From NCBI GenBank assembly GCA_020429545.1, contig JAGQLF010000001.1, positions 1 to 36,646 of the forward strand: a stretch of 36,646 nucleotides of DNA. The letters run 5' to 3'. Both the position numbers and the translations under genes were made by a program. Numbering within the stretch: the stretch's first letter is position 1; every line of letters begins with the position of its first letter. A model generated the notes under the pieces. That model was not told the DNA's origin and made no database searches. It saw only the letters and a program-made list of their open reading frames with translations. Shown here one piece after another: positions 7,311 to 14,372 of the stretch. This DNA comes from Candidatus Dojkabacteria bacterium. Its GTDB lineage: Bacteria > Patescibacteriota > Dojkabacteria > J137.

Positions 7311-10300
7311 GTGAAAATTACAAATATTAGAAGAAGTAGACAACTACTGCTTTTTGTTTTTGTTGCACTTTTTGGGATTTTACTTATTATTCCCTTTGAA
7401 AAAGTAAATATAATCAATGCAGCAACATTAACTTGGGATGGTGGTGGTGGAGACAACAATTGGAGTACATGTGCAAACTGGACAACAGATACATGCCCAG
7501 GTACATTAGATACTGTTATATTTGATGGTACAAGCACAAAAGATGCTGCAATTGATGCAAGTTTTACTGGGATAGTAAGATATCTTACTATAAGTTCTGG
7601 CTACACTGGTACCATTACTGCTAATAGATCGATTACAGTAGTATTAAATTTTGGACAAGCAGATGGCATTTTTGATTTGACAGATCAAAGTGGAACTTTT
7701 ACAACTACAAATATAACCGGAGGCTTGTTCACCGCATCATCTACAGATACTACTTTCAAAGGTCCACTTACCATTGATAATTCTAGTTATTTTGATGCAA
7801 ATGGAGGTAATGTAATTCTAGCTCCGGCCAGTAATGTAACCTATACTTATACCTGTAATAATACCGTTTTCAATCAGGTAACAATTTCACCTGTTGCTGC
7901 AAATGCTACGCTAAATATGACTGATAGTTGTAATTTTCCTTTAGGTAGTAACCCAACAATTAGTTCATCTTCAACAATCAAAGTTTATGGAGACTTAAGT
8001 GGTACTGGTGAGTTGGGATGGCCAGCTGCTAATTTACAAATCTATTCAACTGGTACATTAACTGGATTTAGTGGCTATAACACTGGTGCTTTGAGGCTTA
8101 CTGGAAAGACACTAGATTGGTCAGGGGCAACTACCTTTGCTATGACTGGTAATCTAACTATTGAATCTAGTGGTGGTCTGACACTTCCCTTGCCTACCGG
8201 TACAATACAAATATACGATTTAACTGTATCAACTTCTAGTACTTTTACAGCTTCTTCTGGGACTATGAATGTAAGAGGCGATATCACCCTATCAAATGGT
8301 ACGACATTCGATTCAAATGGAGGAACCATTAATTTAAATCCAACAGGGAATGTATCTTACGATTGCTATAGTCATACATTTGATTTAATTACTATTAATC
8401 CTGTAAATAATAATATTGATCTTAATATAAACTCTACATGTAACTTTCCTCTTGGTGATAATCCAACAATAACTGGAACCAATGTCGATTTAAATTTAGA
8501 TGGGACACTTTCTGGTACAGGTACATTAACAGCCAGTGCCGATAATCTATTTGTAGTTTCCGGCAGTATACTGTCTGGGTTTGATGGCTTAGAAGTTAGC
8601 AGACTTTATATTAATGGAGCAAATCTAGACCTAAGTAGTTATTCAACCTTAATAACCAACAGTAATTTTGAATTGATTTCAGGAAGTTTTGTTGCACCAT
8701 CTGGAGAAATGGAGGTAAAAGCAAATTTCTACCATACTGCAGGAACTTTTACACATAATAGTGGAACTATTAATTTTTCTGGAACTGGGATTCAAACAAT
8801 AACTGGCTCAACGACTTTTAATAATTTTACAAAAGTAATGACTGCAGATGTATCAAGTAGTTTAAGATTTACAAGTAATACAACTCAAACTATCGAGGGA
8901 GATATGACATTGCATGGATACAGCGATAGTCAAAGATTGAATTTGATTGCAAGCAGCAATACTGTTCAGTGGAATATTGATCCACAAGGAACAAGAGATT
9001 TACAGTATCTAAGTGTTAAAGATTCAAATAATATAAATGCAAGTGTAATAGTACTTAGTGGTACTGGAAGCAACGATGCAGGAAATAATACTAATTACGA
9101 TTTTGCGAATAGTGCCCCAGATGCTCCTAATACCCTAGGACCTTCAGGATATGTGAATGGAAGTTCAGATACCGATACAACTCCCACATTGACATTTAAA
9201 ATATCAGATGTAGCAAATCCTTTAGATACTCTACGATTTAGAATTCAGATTTCAGATACCAATGACTTTTCTAATGTTTTAGTAGATTACACATCTGCCC
9301 TAGCAGCTGCTGGAAGTAAAACTTTTACTGTTGGGCAAGCAGTAGGTAGCGGAACATATAATGTGGGGTCAATTGGACAAACTTTAGATAGTGATAGCTA
9401 TTATTGGAGAGTTAAGACCATAGATAACAGTGCTGCGGAATCTGCTTATTCAACTGCAAATTCAGGGTCAATTGCGTTTATAGTAGCTGGGTATCCTAAC
9501 TTACCTTATGCTTTTGGACCTGCGAATAAAATCGATGGGTCAGACTCAACCGAAGGACAACCTAACCTTTATTTTACCTTAGATGATCCTAATGCAGGGG
9601 ATACTGTTAAATACCAAATACAAATTTCCTTAGCAAGTGATTTTTCTACACAAGTTGTAGATTACACATCTGATTTAAGAGCACAGGGTGTTTCTAATTT
9701 TACTGTTGGTCAAGCAGCTGGTAGTGGAAGCTATACAACTGGAAGTTCTGGACAATCACTAGGGAGTGGAAGCTACTACTGGAGAGTTAAAGCAATTGAC
9801 ATTAATAATGAAGAATCTGTATTTAAAGCTGCTTCATTTGGGGGAATTGCTTTTGTAGTATCAAATCCTCCAGATGCACCAACCAACCTAGGACCTAATT
9901 TGTTAATTACTGGGGGCTTATCTACAGATGATACACCTACATTCTCATTTGACTTATCCGATTCAGATGTAGGAGATACAGTAAAGTACAGAATTGATAT
10001 TTCCACAAATAGTGACTACTCTGCTCTAGCCGCCAGTTTTACTTCGGCACTTAGTGCTCAAGGTTCCGCTAGTTTTACTGTAGGACAGTCTTTAAACGGT
10101 GGATCATATTTTCATGGATCTGTTGGAATGGATCTAAATGATGGTGACTATTATTGGAGGGTTAAAGCAATAGATAGCAATGGTGTTGAAGGTACTTACA
10201 CACTAGCTAACGCTGGTGGAATTGCCTTTTCAGTTGGAGGTAATCCGCCAGATACACCTTCCTCTCCAGGTCCAGTAAATCTAATAAATGGTTCTGTAAT

Positions 10301-12170
10301 TCAACAGCAGCAGCCTAGCTTTACCTTTTATATTTCAGATCCAGATTTAGATCAAGTGAAATATAGGATACAAATTTCAAAACGTTCTTCTTTTAATCCC
10401 GTTTTAATAAACTACGAATCTGCATTTGGATCAATCGGAACTAAAACATTCACCGTTGGACAAGCTTCAAATGGAGGTACATATTACTCAGGTTCAGAAG
10501 GTCAGGTTTTAGCACCTGGTGATTATTATTGGAAGATAAGGGCAATTGATATATCTGAATTGGGTTCTCCGTATCTAATACCAAATGGAGCCAATGTTGC
10601 TTTCACGGTATCCAGTGATAATGCAAACTCAGACACTCCATTAGAATATGTACCTGAATTACCAGCAGAGGTAGTTGTAGAGGTAGAAGAAAGTACGTCA
10701 AATGAAGAATCTACAAGTTCTGGCTCTGGTTCATCTTCATCACAACCTACTATAAAATTGAATTTATCAGACTCAAACTCATCTCAACAACTCCAATTTC
10801 AAATTGAGATCGACAATGAATCAGACTATGAAGATCCAGAAGTAATTTATAAGTCCGGATTGATGGAACAAGGTGAGGCTAGTTTTGTTGTGGGTCAGAC
10901 AACTGGTGATGGCCAATATTTAAATGGTTCTGAAGGACAAATATTGGGAGCTGGCGATTATTATGTACGAGCAAAAACTATTGATGAAAAGAGTAATGAG
11001 TCCGAATATTTTTATATAAATAATGGTAGTGTTGCATTTATAATCACTCCATCGTCAGAGTTGGAAATTATTCCCCCTACTGAAATTTCTACTAACAATA
11101 ACCCAACCAGTCCTGGAAATGATAGCGAAGGAATAAATAACCTAAGTGATTTGCATGATGTCCAGATTGAGCAAAATGGCCTAAATGCTATAGGTGAAGA
11201 AAATTCACCAGGTGATGTTTCAGCATCAGCACAAGAAGTTTATGTAGAAACAAAAACACTTGCAAAAGCTTTTACTGAAACTATCAGTAAAGAACCTATA
11301 ACCATACCTTTAGCTGTAGTAGCTACCACAACTCTTGCTACTCTAATTGCGTATCCTAGAATAATTCTTTTGATGATTGTTGTAATTAAAAATATGTTTA
11401 GGAAAAAGAAACAATGGGGAATTGTTTATGATAAAAACACTCTATCTATAATACCATTGGCTACAATTAGGCTCTATTCTTCAGATAATAAATACTTAAG
11501 AGAGACAATCACTGATTTTAAGGGACAATATGGTTTTGTTGTAGACGCTGGTGATTATATACTCCAAATAAAGCACTCTGAGTATATAAGCACAAAAGAG
11601 AAAATTAGAATTGAGAAGGAAGAAGACTTGTTAACAAGCGACATTGAGCTAAATAAAAGTAACAAAAAAAGAATGTCCATCTTCAAAAAAATACAGAAGT
11701 CTATGCGAGAACGATTGCCTTCTATTTGGCAAGGATTATTCTTTATAGGGTTCGCAGTAGCTGTTATTTCATTTATAAATGCGAGTGAAGCACCCAATCT
11801 GTTTATATTACTTATGTTTGTTTTCTCAATAGCATTTTATACGTTTAGATCAATCATATTCGCTAGTCCATGGGGATATTTATATGATTTATCAGATAAT
11901 TCAAGAATATCTAGGGCAATAGTCCGAGTAATTAATACTAAAAATAATAAAGTCGAAGAAATAACGGTTACCGATGAAAAAGGTAGATTCCTAATTAAAA
12001 ATAAGAAAGGAAACTATAAACTAATGATTAGTTCAGATAAATACACTCTACCTGATTCAGAAAATCAAAACATTTCTATAAAAGAATTGAATAATTCAAG
12101 CCTAAAAATTGGATTAGAAAAATCTGCTGATACTTCTAAAAATAATGTAGCAAAATTTGGTGTGTTATAG
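7311..12170 (+). CDS. giant (1619 aa) repeat-rich cell-surface protein with C-terminal membrane-embedded module
   Basis: GTG start and an N-terminal signal/anchor helix. LTWDGGGGDNNWSTCANWT motif followed by a T/S/G/N-rich beta-helix-like region with ~172-aa modules. Five ~124-aa tandem beta-sandwich-like domains share P-D-A-P..LGP, KYRIQIS, FTVGQ and YYWRVKAID. An acidic/serine linker follows, then three TM helices interleaved with two CarboxypepD_reg-like segments (GIVYDKNT.., GYLYDLSD..). Confidence 0.85.
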   Translation: MKITNIRRSRQLLLFVFVALFGILLIIPFEKVNIINAATLTWDGGGGDNNWSTCANWTTDTCPGTLDTVIFDGTSTKDAAIDASFTGIVRYLTISSGYTGTITANRSITVVLNFGQADGIFDLTDQSGTFTTTNITGGLFTASSTDTTFKGPLTIDNSSYFDANGGNVILAPASNVTYTYTCNNTVFNQVTISPVAANATLNMTDSCNFPLGSNPTISSSSTIKVYGDLSGTGELGWPAANLQIYSTGTLTGFSGYNTGALRLTGKTLDWSGATTFAMTGNLTIESSGGLTLPLPTGTIQIYDLTVSTSSTFTASSGTMNVRGDITLSNGTTFDSNGGTINLNPTGNVSYDCYSHTFDLITINPVNNNIDLNINSTCNFPLGDNPTITGTNVDLNLDGTLSGTGTLTASADNLFVVSGSILSGFDGLEVSRLYINGANLDLSSYSTLITNSNFELISGSFVAPSGEMEVKANFYHTAGTFTHNSGTINFSGTGIQTITGSTTFNNFTKVMTADVSSSLRFTSNTTQTIEGDMTLHGYSDSQRLNLIASSNTVQWNIDPQGTRDLQYLSVKDSNNINASVIVLSGTGSNDAGNNTNYDFANSAPDAPNTLGPSGYVNGSSDTDTTPTLTFKISDVANPLDTLRFRIQISDTNDFSNVLVDYTSALAAAGSKTFTVGQAVGSGTYNVGSIGQTLDSDSYYWRVKTIDNSAAESAYSTANSGSIAFIVAGYPNLPYAFGPANKIDGSDSTEGQPNLYFTLDDPNAGDTVKYQIQISLASDFSTQVVDYTSDLRAQGVSNFTVGQAAGSGSYTTGSSGQSLGSGSYYWRVKAIDINNEESVFKAASFGGIAFVVSNPPDAPTNLGPNLLITGGLSTDDTPTFSFDLSDSDVGDTVKYRIDISTNSDYSALAASFTSALSAQGSASFTVGQSLNGGSYFHGSVGMDLNDGDYYWRVKAIDSNGVEGTYTLANAGGIAFSVGGNPPDTPSSPGPVNLINGSVIQQQQPSFTFYISDPDLDQVKYRIQISKRSSFNPVLINYESAFGSIGTKTFTVGQASNGGTYYSGSEGQVLAPGDYYWKIRAIDISELGSPYLIPNGANVAFTVSSDNANSDTPLEYVPELPAEVVVEVEESTSNEESTSSGSGSSSSQPTIKLNLSDSNSSQQLQFQIEIDNESDYEDPEVIYKSGLMEQGEASFVVGQTTGDGQYLNGSEGQILGAGDYYVRAKTIDEKSNESEYFYINNGSVAFIITPSSELEIIPPTEISTNNNPTSPGNDSEGINNLSDLHDVQIEQNGLNAIGEENSPGDVSASAQEVYVETKTLAKAFTETISKEPITIPLAVVATTTLATLIAYPRIILLMIVVIKNMFRKKKQWGIVYDKNTLSIIPLATIRLYSSDNKYLRETITDFKGQYGFVVDAGDYILQIKHSEYISTKEKIRIEKEEDLLTSDIELNKSNKKRMSIFKKIQKSMRERLPSIWQGLFFIGFAVAVISFINASEAPNLFILLMFVFSIAFYTFRSIIFASPWGYLYDLSDNSRISRAIVRVINTKNNKVEEITVTDEKGRFLIKNKKGNYKLMISSDKYTLPDSENQNISIKELNNSSLKIGLEKSADTSKNNVAKFGVL
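7791..8822 (+). repeat. internal ~516-nt (172-aa) module repeat in the N-terminal beta-helix-like region of the giant protein
   Basis: FDANGGNVILAPASNVTYTYTCNNTVFNQVTISP..CNFPLGSNPTI..LSGTGEL (from 7791) is paralleled by FDSNGGTINLNPTGNVSYDCYSHTFDLITINP..CNFPLGDNPTI..LSGTGTL (from 8307). A third partial module starts near 8750 (HNSGTINFSGTG). Confidence 0.7.
9111..11046 (+). repeat. five tandem ~372-375-nt (124-125 aa) domain repeats inside the giant protein
   Basis: Units start at about 9111, 9489, 9861, 10236 and, after a ~130-nt acidic/Ser linker, 10743. Protein motifs are conserved but the DNA has diverged, so the duplication is old. Confidence 0.85.
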
Positions 12171-12233
12171 AAATTGTAATGCAATACAATGTTTATTTTT
12201 CCTAATTTTGTTAAATTTAACTCACCAAGTATT

Positions 12234-12242
12234 TGTTAGAAT
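12234..12242 (+). promoter_or_regulatory. extended -10 promoter (TGTTAGAAT) with leaderless geometry for the xAFD-repeat gene
   Basis: TGnTAGAAT ends 6 nt before the A of ATG 12249, which places +1 on the start codon. There is no SD. Confidence 0.4.
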
Positions 12243-12248
12243 ATATTT

Positions 12249-12725
12249 ATGTCTTTAACTAAACAGGATTTACAATTAATTAAAGAAGTCGTAGGTGAGG
12301 TATTTGATGAGAAATTCCAGCCTGCATTTGATATTGCATTTGAACGTAGTTTTCAATCTGCGTTTGATAAAGCTTTCAATAAAGCTTTTGGGCCAGCTTT
12401 TGATAAGGCTTTTGATAAGGCTTTTGATATTGCATTTGATAGAGCTTTTGATAAAAGATTTAAACCTGCCTTCGAAGAGGCATTTGATGAAAAACTTACT
12501 ATAATTCAATCTATGATTTCAGAATCAGCAATTGCCCAAACAGACATAATGTTTAAATATTTTGCAAGTAAAGATGATTTAGATATAGCAGTTGAAAAAT
12601 TAACTAGTACAAGTTTAGATTCAAGAGTTATTACTTTAGAAAAGACAGTTGCTAATCATAGTTACAAATTAGATGTTGATCCGTTACCTTGGATTGAAGA
12701 AAAACTAAAATCTTTAAAAAATTGA
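12249..12725 (+). CDS. small protein with 16 consecutive xxFx (mostly xAFD) tetrad repeats
   Basis: 158-aa ORF. Phe occurs at residues 19, 23, ... 79 with exact 4-residue spacing (KAFDKAFDIAFDRAFD..). The C-terminal ~75 aa is non-repetitive and probably helical. TGA stop is followed directly by TAA. Confidence 0.6.
   Translation: MSLTKQDLQLIKEVVGEVFDEKFQPAFDIAFERSFQSAFDKAFNKAFGPAFDKAFDKAFDIAFDRAFDKRFKPAFEEAFDEKLTIIQSMISESAIAQTDIMFKYFASKDDLDIAVEKLTSTSLDSRVITLEKTVANHSYKLDVDPLPWIEEKLKSLKN
12297..12500 (+). repeat. 12-nt (4-codon) tandem repeat, about 17 units (consensus GCTTTTGATAAG)
   Basis: Read directly from the sequence. The repeat has no stops in other frames, which explains ORF-track artefacts 12276-12509(-) and 12295-12504(+). 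Confidence 0.9.
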
Positions 12726-12767
12726 TAAGAGCATATTCATTTAATTTTCTTTATAAACTAATAAGAA

Positions 12768-12776
12768 TGATATAAT
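12768..12776 (+). promoter_or_regulatory. extended -10 promoter (TGATATAAT) for tRNA-Leu
   Basis: Perfect TGnTATAAT ends 10 nt before the mature tRNA 5' end at 12787. Confidence 0.5.
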
Positions 12777-12786
12777 TCATTGCAAT

Positions 12787-12872
12787 GCCGAAGTGGTGGA
12801 ACTGGTAGACACGCCGGACTCAAAATCCGGTGGAGGTTATACTTCGTGAGGGTTCGAGTCCCTCCTTCGGTA
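12787..12872 (+). tRNA. tRNA-Leu (anticodon CAA), class II
   Basis: Acceptor GCCGAAG/CTTCGGT (G1:U72 wobble). D-arm GTGGAACTGGTAGACAC. Anticodon arm CCGGA-CTCAAAA-TCCGG. Long variable arm. T-arm GAGGG-TTCGAGT-CCCTC. Discriminator A. CCA is not encoded. Confidence 0.9.
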
Positions 12873-13040
12873 TGAAAAATTTACTAAAAAAGTTAGCAGA
12901 GTTTTCATTATTAAATTAAGTCTAGAACCGACGGTTCGACTCTGATTTTCTGCACGAAGTAATAAGTGCATAGAAAATCGAGATCCTTTTTCAATAAGAT
13001 CATTGCGACGAAGTAGCAATATGATCGCATTGAAATAAGA

Positions 13041-13058
13041 GAGTCCCTCCTTCGGTAT
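13041..13058 (+). repeat. 18-nt direct copy of the tRNA-Leu 3' end (att-like scar)
   Basis: GAGTCCCTCCTTCGGTAT at 13041-13058 is identical to 12856-12873. It abuts the dnaB stop codon. The two copies bracket 167 nt of non-coding, hairpin-rich DNA. Confidence 0.85.
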
Positions 13059-14372
13059 TTACTCAACCTCAAGATATCTCTGTTGAGCTCCAATAAATTT
13101 AAGCTTAGCTCCTCCAATTGGTCCATTCCTGTGTTTTGCAACAGTAAAATGAATAAGCGGCTCTTCATCTTCGTCATCATCATCAGTAGGACTTTCTCTA
13201 TTTAAAAACATTACAACATCTGCATCTTGCTCAATAGATCCAGACTCTCTCAAATCTGAAAGTTGAGGAGTTCTATCTGATCTATTTTCAACTGCTCGGT
13301 TAAGCTGTGACAAACAAATAACTGGAATTTCGAGTTCTCTTGCAAGAATCTTTAAAGATCTAGACATTTCACCAACTGCCTGTGCTCTATTTTCAATATC
13401 TCTTGCTTGCATAAGCTGAAGATAGTCAATAATAATCATATCTAGCCCTTTTTCTAACATTAGTCTTCTTGCCTTACTTCTCAACTGCATAATTGTTATT
13501 CCTGGAGTTTCATCGATCAGAATATTTGATTCAGAAAGCTTTCCTGCTCCTTCTGGGTATCTTTTAAACTCTTGATCAGTCATTTTTCCCATTCGAATAT
13601 TCCACAAATCTACCTGAATTTGTTGAGCTAACATTCTCTCCATTACCTGAAGAGCAGGCATTTCTAGCGAAAATATTGCAACTGTCTTCTTCTCGTTTAC
13701 AGCTACGTTTCTTGCAATATTAAATGCAAAGGCACTTTTTCCTGTACCTGGACGTGCAGCTAAAATTACAAGATCTGATGTATGAAATCCTCCTAAAATT
13801 TTATCTACATTTCTAAATCCGCTTGGTAGTCCTCTTAAAGCATCGGGATTTTTTGCATACTCATCGGCCTTCTGCATTTGCAGTTCTAGTAAAGTTGCAG
13901 AGTCTAAGAAATCTTGTTTTGTATTATCTTTTGATAGTTCAACAACATGCTGTTCTACTCCACTCAAAATATCTTCAATACTTTCACTTTCATTTCTAGA
14001 TTGTTCATCCAACTGCGCACCAAAAGTTATAAGACTTCTTCGAATGAACATTTCTCTAACAATCTCTGCATACTTTGATACATTTGCTGAAGTTGGTACT
14101 TCAGAAATTATTTCTGAAAGATAAACCCCACCGCCTACTTGTTTAAACTTTTTAGTTTTTTTAAGTTCTGCAGTTAGAGTTAGCACATCAATAGGACTAT
14201 TTGTCCTATAAAGATTCATCATTGCATCAAAAATTAATTGATGTTTAGGATCGTAAAAGAAGTCTGGTTTTAGGACATCGGCCACTTTATCAGTGACCTC
14301 ATTATCTATCAAAACAGATCCTATAACTGCTCTTTCTGCCTCTAGGTTTTGAGGTGGAATTCTATCTGCCAA
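13059..14372 (-). CDS. dnaB: replicative DNA helicase DnaB
   Basis: N-terminal PPQNLEAERAVIGSVL. Walker A ARPGTGKSAFAFN. Walker B IIIDYLQLM. SQLNR and ESGSIEQDADVV motifs. Apparent TTG start, with no in-frame ATG upstream. Confidence 0.95.
   Translation of the reverse strand: MADRIPPQNLEAERAVIGSVLIDNEVTDKVADVLKPDFFYDPKHQLIFDAMMNLYRTNSPIDVLTLTAELKKTKKFKQVGGGVYLSEIISEVPTSANVSKYAEIVREMFIRRSLITFGAQLDEQSRNESESIEDILSGVEQHVVELSKDNTKQDFLDSATLLELQMQKADEYAKNPDALRGLPSGFRNVDKILGGFHTSDLVILAARPGTGKSAFAFNIARNVAVNEKKTVAIFSLEMPALQVMERMLAQQIQVDLWNIRMGKMTDQEFKRYPEGAGKLSESNILIDETPGITIMQLRSKARRLMLEKGLDMIIIDYLQLMQARDIENRAQAVGEMSRSLKILARELEIPVICLSQLNRAVENRSDRTPQLSDLRESGSIEQDADVVMFLNRESPTDDDDEDEEPLIHFTVAKHRNGPIGGAKLKFIGAQQRYLEVE

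Follow-up and report, generated by a model that had tools for sequence, protein, structure and literature searches.

The tetrad-repeat gene and its product

This report concerns a small gene of a Candidatus Dojkabacteria bacterium whose product is built around a long array of phenylalanine-containing four-residue units, or tetrads. The stretch of DNA that was analysed, hereafter the window, comprises 36,646 nt of contig JAGQLF010000001.1 at 33% guanine plus cytosine (GC), and belongs to a genome of 0.96 Mb in 121 contigs in which the tetrad gene is present in a single copy. The gene occupies positions 12249-12725 of the forward strand, where the listing of open reading frames (ORFs), homologues, synonymous changes and a second public record all point to it, and it is closed by two in-frame stop codons, TGA then TAA (12723-12728). 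The product has 158 amino acids (aa), a mass of 18.1 kDa and a pI of 4.8. A preliminary description of this DNA had placed the gene between that of a giant surface protein (7311-12170) and the gene for tRNA-Leu with anticodon CAA (12786-12873), and this location is correct.

The protein is divisible into three modules, all encoded on the forward strand. The N-terminal cap (12249-12296; residues 1-16, MSLTKQDLQLIKEVVG) is, in the alignment of homologues referred to here as A1, the best-conserved module of the family, with the consensus MxLTKxDLxxI, which in this protein reads MSLTKQDLQLI. The tetrad array (12297-12500; residues 17-84) consists of 17 units of the form x-[A/K/S/R]-F-[D/E/Q/N/G/K]. 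The C-terminal non-repeat part (12501-12725; residues 85-158), delimited from alignment A1 and from the AlphaFold2 model, includes at residues 106-111 a second cap, of the form (A/V)(S/T)K(D/E)(D/E)L, and a conserved block (12636-12689; residues 130-147, LEKTVANHSYKLDVDPLP) common to the homologues P0026, P0071 and P0029. This block carries the family motif RhxxLEKxV, present here as RVITLEKTV (residues 126-134), and a heptad-like appearance, judged by eye, is limited to residues 123-141. Neither a signal peptide nor a membrane segment is found in the protein, and the maximum 19-residue hydropathy is 0.84. Because it is acidic and has no hydrophobic segment, the protein is likely to be cytoplasmic and soluble.

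Evidence for a real gene and a protein family

On the evidence of sequence conservation, 12249-12725 encodes a real protein. A word-indexed search found P0002 (186 aa, E 2e-25) and shorter relatives, and an exhaustive phmmer search, run against 1.84 billion representatives, gave 114 matches at E<1e-3, about 35 of them small proteins (88-231 aa) that share all three modules. Within the conserved C-terminal block the gene differs from that of P0026 (locus L003) at eight codons, and all eight differences are synonymous, including a serine encoded by AGT in one and TCT in the other, which argues for constraint at the level of the protein. An identical stretch of 6.5 kb containing the gene recurs in another public metagenome record. 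The alternative that the ORF is a spurious product of a non-coding 12-nt repeat is prompted by two observations: two further frames are open across the array (12276-12509 on the reverse strand and 12295-12504 on the forward strand), and artefacts of just this kind were matched by the query. In tblastn searches of phage and plasmid collections artefacts were indeed the only matches. The match in Synechococcus phage S-SKS1 (L070, 167096-167599) is the antisense strand of a G-x-V-x repeat gene and that in Hymenobacter plasmid NZ_CP095052.1 (L071) is an unannotated, non-coding (HAFG)n microsatellite of 12-nt period, and both were rejected; phmmer matches devoid of the cap, such as P0057, P0087 and P0103, may be similar artefacts. 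For the gene in the window, a spurious origin is improbable in the extreme, as both non-repeat modules, N- and C-terminal, are kept at the amino-acid level in distant metagenomes while their codons vary synonymously, the Phe residues are 100% conserved over a DNA repeat of just 75% regularity, and of 401 genomes drawn from across the phylum, 31 contain family members recognised by a profile built from A1. The other open frames over the array are by-products of the repeat, and the possibility raised in the preliminary description, that the ORF itself is such a by-product, is not borne out.

Members of the family share the cap MxLTKxDLxxI, a central array in which an aromatic or aliphatic residue recurs in each tetrad, as a rule with Asp or Glu after it, and a C-terminal helix with the motif RhxxLE[KR]x[VL], and the protein described here has the cap, an array of 16 in-register Phe residues and the C-terminal R-h-x-x-L-E-[KR]-x-[VL]. 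Across 35 members, tetrad position 1 is most often Lys (22%), Glu (17%), Arg (14%) or Pro (13%), position 2 is Ala (49%), Lys (19%) or Ser (10%), position 3 is Phe, and position 4 is Asp (49%) or Glu (10%), with Pro accounting for 6% of the last. The firm element across the family is thus only F-[D/E]. The characterisation of the unit as Ala-Phe-acidic-basic holds for this protein; across the family it does not, given the composition of position 2 and the existence of Leu-type paralogues.

The number of in-register Phe residues ranges from 2 to 21 among homologues, so that a variation in repeat number, for which the preliminary description had proposed to look, does occur. P0026, P0071 and P0029 retain the cap and the block LEKTVANHSYxLxVxPxP while their Phe tetrads are nearly absent; because both ends are kept nearly without tetrads, the array is a length-variable insert. 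The same cap is found on relatives with Leu tetrads or heptad arrays, and many members found with the A1 profile keep cap and C-terminal motif around a middle made of heptad-type arrays (e.g. IDKRFEx) or Leu tetrads; the middle is therefore a swappable, length-variable rod between constant ends. Two genomes of the same genus carry paralogues with (E-x-K-L)n tetrads, in which Leu replaces Phe. Paralogues with a MALTKEDL cap occur at L078 (G002:C13; 1604-1960 and 9561-9902), L079 (237-560), L080 (1531-1887) and L081 (4433-5044), all from the same genus or family, with Leu-type tetrads or longer repeat units and set amid GT1, GT2 and MurJ-like flippase genes. In a lineage of 58% GC, a member of a 'DFTLEDIR' subfamily (L042, G225:C93, and L066) is followed directly by a secreted Laminin_G_3 protein and by other large proteins, an arrangement that is syntenic in two records, one of which has an insertion sequence-like (IS-like) transposase inserted upstream. 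The family as a whole is patchily spread among bacterial genomes of about 1 Mb of the candidate phyla radiation (CPR) type.

The preliminary description recognised no family, and the searches agree. Relatives matched by the family profile bear the single label 'hypothetical protein', and neither the query nor its homologues have a significant match in Pfam, NCBIfam, PHROGs or PADLOC. DivIVA, which has a cap-like 'LTPxDI' start, is not among the Pfam matches of the query even at E<=10. Neither is DUF2730 (PF10805, cut-off 24.9 bits), for which P0026 and P0013 score 16.0 and 14.3 bits; heptad-type relatives from L008 and L011 pass the cut-off with 34.1 and 25.0 bits, scores that probably reflect generic coiled-coil similarity. 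Sequence searches of the PDB with the protein, with a tail-fibre tetrad stretch and with the family profile returned nothing with tetrads, the nearest echo being a 24-residue helix of isocitrate dehydrogenase with F/Y at i+4 (E ~0.2). A Foldseek comparison of the AlphaFold2 model with PDB structures had no match better than E 2.3 and was uninformative, as is expected of a rod, and full-text searches of the literature on Phe repeats of the tetrad or four-residue kind turned up no account of the motif.

Register and periodicity of the array

The translation of the ORF agrees exactly with residues 17-84 and the 16 in-register Phe residues as first quoted. These occupy a single register (positions 19, 23 and so on to 79), within a run of hydrophobic residues at i+4 spacing that extends over 19 positions from I11 to L83; among 200,000 random permutations of the protein's residues, no run of in-register Phe was longer than 7. 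For residues 11-84 the hydrophobic moment shows a sole sharp peak, of 1.69, at 90 degrees per residue, and it is just 0.13-0.38 at 98-104 degrees and 0.18-0.29 at 94-98 degrees. The array is thus no canonical heptad coiled coil (0.13-0.38 at 102-104 degrees vs 1.69 at 90), as had been stated from the repeat alone, nor does it follow hendecads or pentadecads, whose periods of 3.67-3.8 lie within an accessible range of up to ~3.9, its own period being exactly 4.0. In composition it has 16 Phe (24%), 12 Ala and 26 charged residues of 68 (38%), and it is net acidic with a pI of 4.7. Proline is present at residues 25, 49 and 73 (codons at 12321, 12393 and 12465), a spacing of exactly 24 residues or six tetrads.

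At the level of DNA the repeat is far less regular. Tandem Repeats Finder reports a core of 12-nt period on the forward strand at 12363-12455, with 7.8 copies, 75% match and the consensus TTTGATAAAGCT, and the sole 12-mer present twice is AAGGCTTTTGAT. The weak match between copies and the single duplicated 12-mer argue that the protein pattern was held while the DNA drifted. As read from the nucleotide sequence, then, the array is old, its DNA diverged and its protein pattern strictly kept.

Predicted structure and geometry of the aromatic ridge

AlphaFold2 with alignment A1 gives a model of mean predicted local distance difference test score (pLDDT) 84.5, in which residues 5-104 form one continuous helix at a pLDDT of ~90. 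The protein is thus predicted to be helical throughout, in support of the helix considered in the preliminary description. The suggestion made there that the prolines segment the rod finds no support in the model, the helix running uninterrupted through all three. Further helices are predicted in the C-terminal part, where residues 85-104 form the end of the long helix and are followed by helices at 108-136 and 147-157. When the alignment is withheld the same helices are returned at low confidence (mean pLDDT 50.7).

On a straight alpha-helix of 3.60-3.63 residues per turn, the ridge formed by the Phe residues drifts by 37-40 degrees per tetrad, in good agreement with the ~40 degrees first estimated, making a full turn every 54-59 Å and turning through 550-600 degrees over the array. 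Keeping such a ridge faced towards the axis of a supercoil needs a path torsion of 0.107-0.116 rad/Å and, with the torsion of a circular helix limited to 1/(2R), a superhelix radius of no more than 4.3-4.7 Å, which falls under the ~4.9 Å of a two-stranded coil. The torsion formula was validated on the canonical heptad, for which it returns the correct shift of 3.68 degrees per residue. Coiled-coil theory leads to the same place: a period of 4.0 is outside the accessible range, the upper limit of which is ~3.9, and the natural extreme is the 3.8 (19/5) of YadA (Hartmann et al., 2016; PMC4786415). The torsion bound and this limit together exclude a continuous Phe zipper on geometrical grounds, and since a 4.0-residue period cannot be reached by supercoiling, the Phe residues cannot all be buried in one seam. 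A coherent face is possible over short distances, the Ala and Phe positions covering only ~180 degrees over three tetrads or fewer. The length of the array varies alone among homologues, and its partner is therefore not another segment of the same chain, which leaves, we infer, its own copies, an external ligand or solvent.

Start site and genomic setting

A promoter-like extended -10 box, TG-t-TAGAAT, can be read on the forward strand at 12234-12242. It stops 6 nt upstream of the ATG, no Shine-Dalgarno sequence is present, and three homologues (L014, L019 and L003) have comparable -10 boxes 6-8 nt ahead of their ATG. A scan for the sigma-70 consensus made no promoter call at 12234-12242, where a good -35 element is absent. 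Among the ~30 gene starts in the window none has a Shine-Dalgarno sequence, and at many a TAnnnT box lies no more than ~10 nt from the ATG, a pattern that suggests Shine-Dalgarno-independent, possibly leaderless, initiation throughout the genome. A leaderless start of the tetrad gene is therefore plausible from its upstream sequence, as a trait not special to this gene; of the leaderless-type promoter first proposed, the box and its spacing stand, while the consensus scan does not call it and the missing Shine-Dalgarno sequence is common to the whole window.

The upstream neighbour (7311-12170, forward strand) encodes a surface protein of 1619 aa with C-terminal membrane segments and CarboxypepD_reg domains, and further to the left are ruvABC and genes for YebC and a LytR_C protein. 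Downstream, tRNA-Leu(CAA) (12786-12873, forward strand) is called by ARAGORN and matched by the Rfam tRNA model at 58.9 bits, and is followed by the gene for the replicative helicase DnaB (13059-14372, reverse strand), which is 94% identical to DnaB of relative G001, and then by genes for ribosomal protein L31 and a release factor. The locus was compared with the corresponding loci L060-L063. By synteny with the four relatives G001, G002, G003 and G007, the intergenic block 12171-13058 is inverted in the window: tRNA-Leu lies on the opposite strand to that in all four, where it shares the strand of dnaB. None of the four has a tetrad gene at this locus. The 616 nt that contain the gene (12171-12786) occupy the place of a tRNA-Leu/dnaB spacer of ~180-300 nt in the relatives, and the spacers of G001 and G003 are homologous to each other and dissimilar to 12171-12786. 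Because the region of the tetrad gene replaces a spacer conserved among relatives, synteny marks the gene as accessory, either acquired in this lineage or substituted there for other sequence, at a tRNA locus that has been rearranged. Composition gives no signal of a recent foreign origin, and that idea was dropped: the ORF has a GC fraction of 0.30 against 0.33 for the window, and its GC at third codon positions (GC3) is like that of its neighbours.

The spacer common to G001 (L060) and G003 (L061), which has two hairpin-like motifs, CTTTTACgAACGaAGTG…AGTAAAAG and AATCCCGgTAG…GAAATCTtTGATTT…CGTATCGGgA, is absent from the window. On the 3' side of tRNA-Leu lies a strongly folding element (12874-13058, core 12922-13058, forward strand), with a z-score of -5.2 on the minus strand and a minimum free energy (MFE) of -49.3 kcal/mol on the plus strand. 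It starts with ACCGACGG, and its last 18 nt (13041-13058) repeat the 3' end of tRNA-Leu (12856-12873) exactly. This copy of the tRNA end abuts the stop codon of dnaB in the window and that of the giant gene in G001, and the junction is the same in both, TAA-ATACCGAAGGAGGGACTC. Identity to G001, the closest relative, is 89% for the folding element, 85% for dnaB DNA and 73-75% for the giant gene. Neither ARAGORN nor Rfam makes a call on the element, which could be either a tRNA-like RNA or an att-type scar left by an element that had integrated into tRNA-Leu.

Comparison with known helical systems

Among the nearest structural parallels are the right-handed coiled coils with non-heptad repeats, namely the hendecads of tetrabrachion (11/3 = 3.67), pentadecads (15/4 = 3.75) and the 19/5 (3.8) repeat of YadA. 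Like these, the array is a long alpha-helical fibrous repeat with a hydrophobic period above 3.63, its neighbouring Ala and Phe residues, one small and one large and both of core type, resemble the paired d/e positions of right-handed coils, and repeats of this kind occur in fibres and stalks. The difference is that the present period is exactly 4.0, sustained over 16-21 units in the family, which is past both the ~3.9 limit and the 3.8 extreme (PMC4786415). Single alpha-helix (SAH) domains, such as those of myosin VI/X and INCENP, offer a likeness of another kind, being isolated long helices of simple repeat and variable length that act as length-setting spacers. They are, however, rich in Glu, Lys and Arg, with opposite-charge pairs from i to i+4 and almost no aromatic residues, whereas this array is 24% Phe and its i,i+4 neighbours are of identical residue type.

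The 11-residue lipid-binding repeats of apolipoproteins, perilipins and alpha-synuclein use a period of 3.67, which keeps a hydrophobic stripe on a flat surface. The present protein shares with them an amphipathic helix built from repeats and bearing a hydrophobic stripe, but its 4.0 period winds the stripe, and it has no Pfam match. The coiled coil of WbdD is said to have been described by Hagelueken et al. in 2015 as a 'molecular ruler' for O-antigen length. The likeness to WbdD, which is a lead only, is that of a length-critical helical rod in a glycan-synthesis cluster, several family members lying beside GT1, GT2, Bac_transf and MurJ-like genes; yet WbdD has catalytic domains and a heptad coiled coil, the family has no enzyme domain, and the copy in the window lies outside any glycan cluster. 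The omega-helix of poly(beta-benzyl-L-aspartate) has 4.0 residues per turn and is stabilised by stacked benzyl side chains. To our knowledge it is the only classical helix that matches a 4.0 repeat, and it is known solely from synthetic homopolymers. Four residues per turn would stack all the aromatic rings in a straight line, although AlphaFold2 and DSSP assign an ordinary alpha-helix to the protein described here.

Interpretation of the tetrad array

The reading that we tentatively prefer, at rather less than an even chance, is that the protein is a stiff helical rod of adjustable length, with a spiral aromatic ridge for multivalent self-contacts and conserved ends for specificity. It would be a soluble, acidic, all-alpha member of an uncurated family of small rods, the array being built and resized by 12-nt slippage and lying within an unbroken alpha-helix of ~100 residues and ~15 nm. 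The 16 Phe residues would line up at i±4 as an unbroken ridge between an Ala groove and an Asp stripe, winding in a right-handed sense by 37-40 degrees per tetrad for ~1.5-1.7 turns in total. Contacts of ridge into groove among copies would give rise to bundles and higher-order assemblies, while the two conserved ends, including the short heptad-like C-terminal helix, would supply specific oligomerisation or partner binding. We infer the oligomeric state, the bundling, the cytoplasmic location and the biological role from these features, and a role as a rod or ruler tied to cell-envelope assembly is possible.

Several points weigh against this reading. AlphaFold2 was run on the monomer only, with a predicted template modelling score (pTM) of 0.36, a value expected for a rod. 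Exposing 16 Phe residues on a soluble rod is costly, and some burial scheme must be in place. The FPPAF units of P0117, P0017 and L006 fit an unbroken helix poorly. As for the cell envelope, ~8 of 33 loci have GT1, GT2, Bac_transf or MurJ-like genes, or genes for large secreted proteins, no more than a few kb away, but an all-against-all comparison of 20 neighbourhoods found no neighbour gene in common, and GT2 genes average ~13 per genome, so that the connection to glycan clusters is weak; the link to glycosyltransferase and surface-protein clusters is a lead, not a finding.

Other explanations of the array have to be set beside the self-associating rod. An unlikely one, though one that several features fit, is a monomeric, stable single helix akin to SAH domains with an aromatic spine, a pure spacer or ruler between the ends whose array does not associate with itself and in which the lone helix would be stabilised by stacking of Phe(i) on Phe(i+4) and by pairing of K(i) with D(i+3). 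The single continuous helix that is predicted, an array length that changes independently of the remaining protein, the invariable pairing of Phe with Phe at i,i+4 and the exchange of the array for other repeat types in relatives are all consistent with it; at 24% Phe and 38% charged residues, however, the array is unlike known SAH domains, its i,i+4 pairs carry like rather than opposite charges, and an exposed ridge of 16 Phe residues would be expected to drive association. The prolines, at their exact 24-residue spacing, raise the different and rather doubtful possibility of an assembly segmented at Pro or Gly-Pro, in which amphipathic helices of 3-6 tetrads pack as a bundle, a solenoid or a discontinuous oligomeric coiled coil, each short helix presenting a coherent Ala/Phe face and the phase being reset at every break. 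This accords with the sector of only ~180 degrees that Ala and Phe occupy in stretches of up to three tetrads, with the frequency of Pro in the family (13% at tetrad position 1, 6% at position 4) and with the FPPAF and FGPAF units common among homologues, but not with a predicted helix unbroken at all three prolines with a pLDDT of ~90, nor with the variation of Pro spacing among homologues, P0002 having one Pro in 21 tetrads and several long arrays, such as those of P0024 and P0065, being free of it.

Association of an amphipathic helix with a membrane or other hydrophobic surface, as suggested in the preliminary description, is decidedly improbable. Locally an Ala/Phe face does stand opposite an Asp/Lys face, and several family members are encoded in cell-envelope or glycosyltransferase clusters; but a stripe turning through 550-600 degrees cannot follow a flat surface and presents at most ~1/3 of its Phe residues to it, the period of known lipid-binding repeats is 3.67 whereas here the moment is 0.18 at 98 degrees against 1.69 at 90, the array is acidic overall, and there is no significant match to Apolipoprotein, one relative reaching 18 bits against a cut-off of 90. 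The supercoiled Phe zipper proposed in the same place fares worse still. Ordinary heptads take the place of the tetrads in relatives with the same ends, which suggests an oligomeric rod, and tetrad arrays are present in trimeric phage fibres, yet a dimer or trimer with a strong right-handed supercoil would demand a radius smaller than that of any two-helix coil and a period beyond both the ~3.9 limit and the natural extreme of 3.8 (PMC4786415), and we regard it as very improbable indeed.

A more far-reaching proposal, which we consider a long shot, is that strict 4.0 arrays of the form (x-x-[F/L/Y]-[D/E])n constitute an undescribed class of fibrous repeat with an architecture of its own. Because a 4.0 period is beyond the reach of alpha-helical coiled coils, the assembled state would have to be new. 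It might be a lattice or bundle in which the spiral aromatic ridge is handed from neighbour to neighbour, or alternatively a helix that is rewound in places to four residues per turn and stacks its Phe residues in a straight column, in the manner of the omega-helix.

Wider occurrence and significance

Tetrad arrays are also found in larger proteins, some of them among the phmmer matches. P0046, a phage tail fibre in which Phage_tail_fib and Peptidase_S74 domains are recognised, has 26 (xxAF) units, (xxF/Yx)n stretches occur in MacB/FtsX-type permeases, including P0008, where the array lies outside the Pfam-defined domains, and similar arrays are present in P0021 and P0014. Prophage-like proteins (P0015 and P0019) hold tetrad stretches, and P0009, a protein of 3647 aa, has more than 1000 residues of (GFDxxLxx)n. 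Very long aromatic arrays of 4- or 8-residue units are seen in a set of long proteins from other organisms (P0009, P0010, P0046, P0008, P0021 and P0030), which also includes a protein with a repeated 12-mer, FDNAYGATFQTT, and (xxYx)n proteins. These array-bearing proteins are extended and for the most part extracellular structures, which fits a fibrous or rod-like role.

The strict tetrad array bears on coiled-coil theory, which caps the period at ~3.8-3.9: an exact period of 4.0 over 16-21 repeats, conserved in a family, tests what happens beyond that limit. Should the array prove to be an ordinary lone helix, the result would be a modest one, another uncharacterised family of low complexity. 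A structure of this small, soluble protein of 18 kDa would explain a motif of much larger assemblies, including phage tail fibres and transporter ectodomains. To what is known of bacteria with small genomes of the CPR type, the tetrad-repeat family adds an accessory rod protein of patchy distribution and adjustable length, sometimes encoded beside genes for surface proteins or glycan synthesis.

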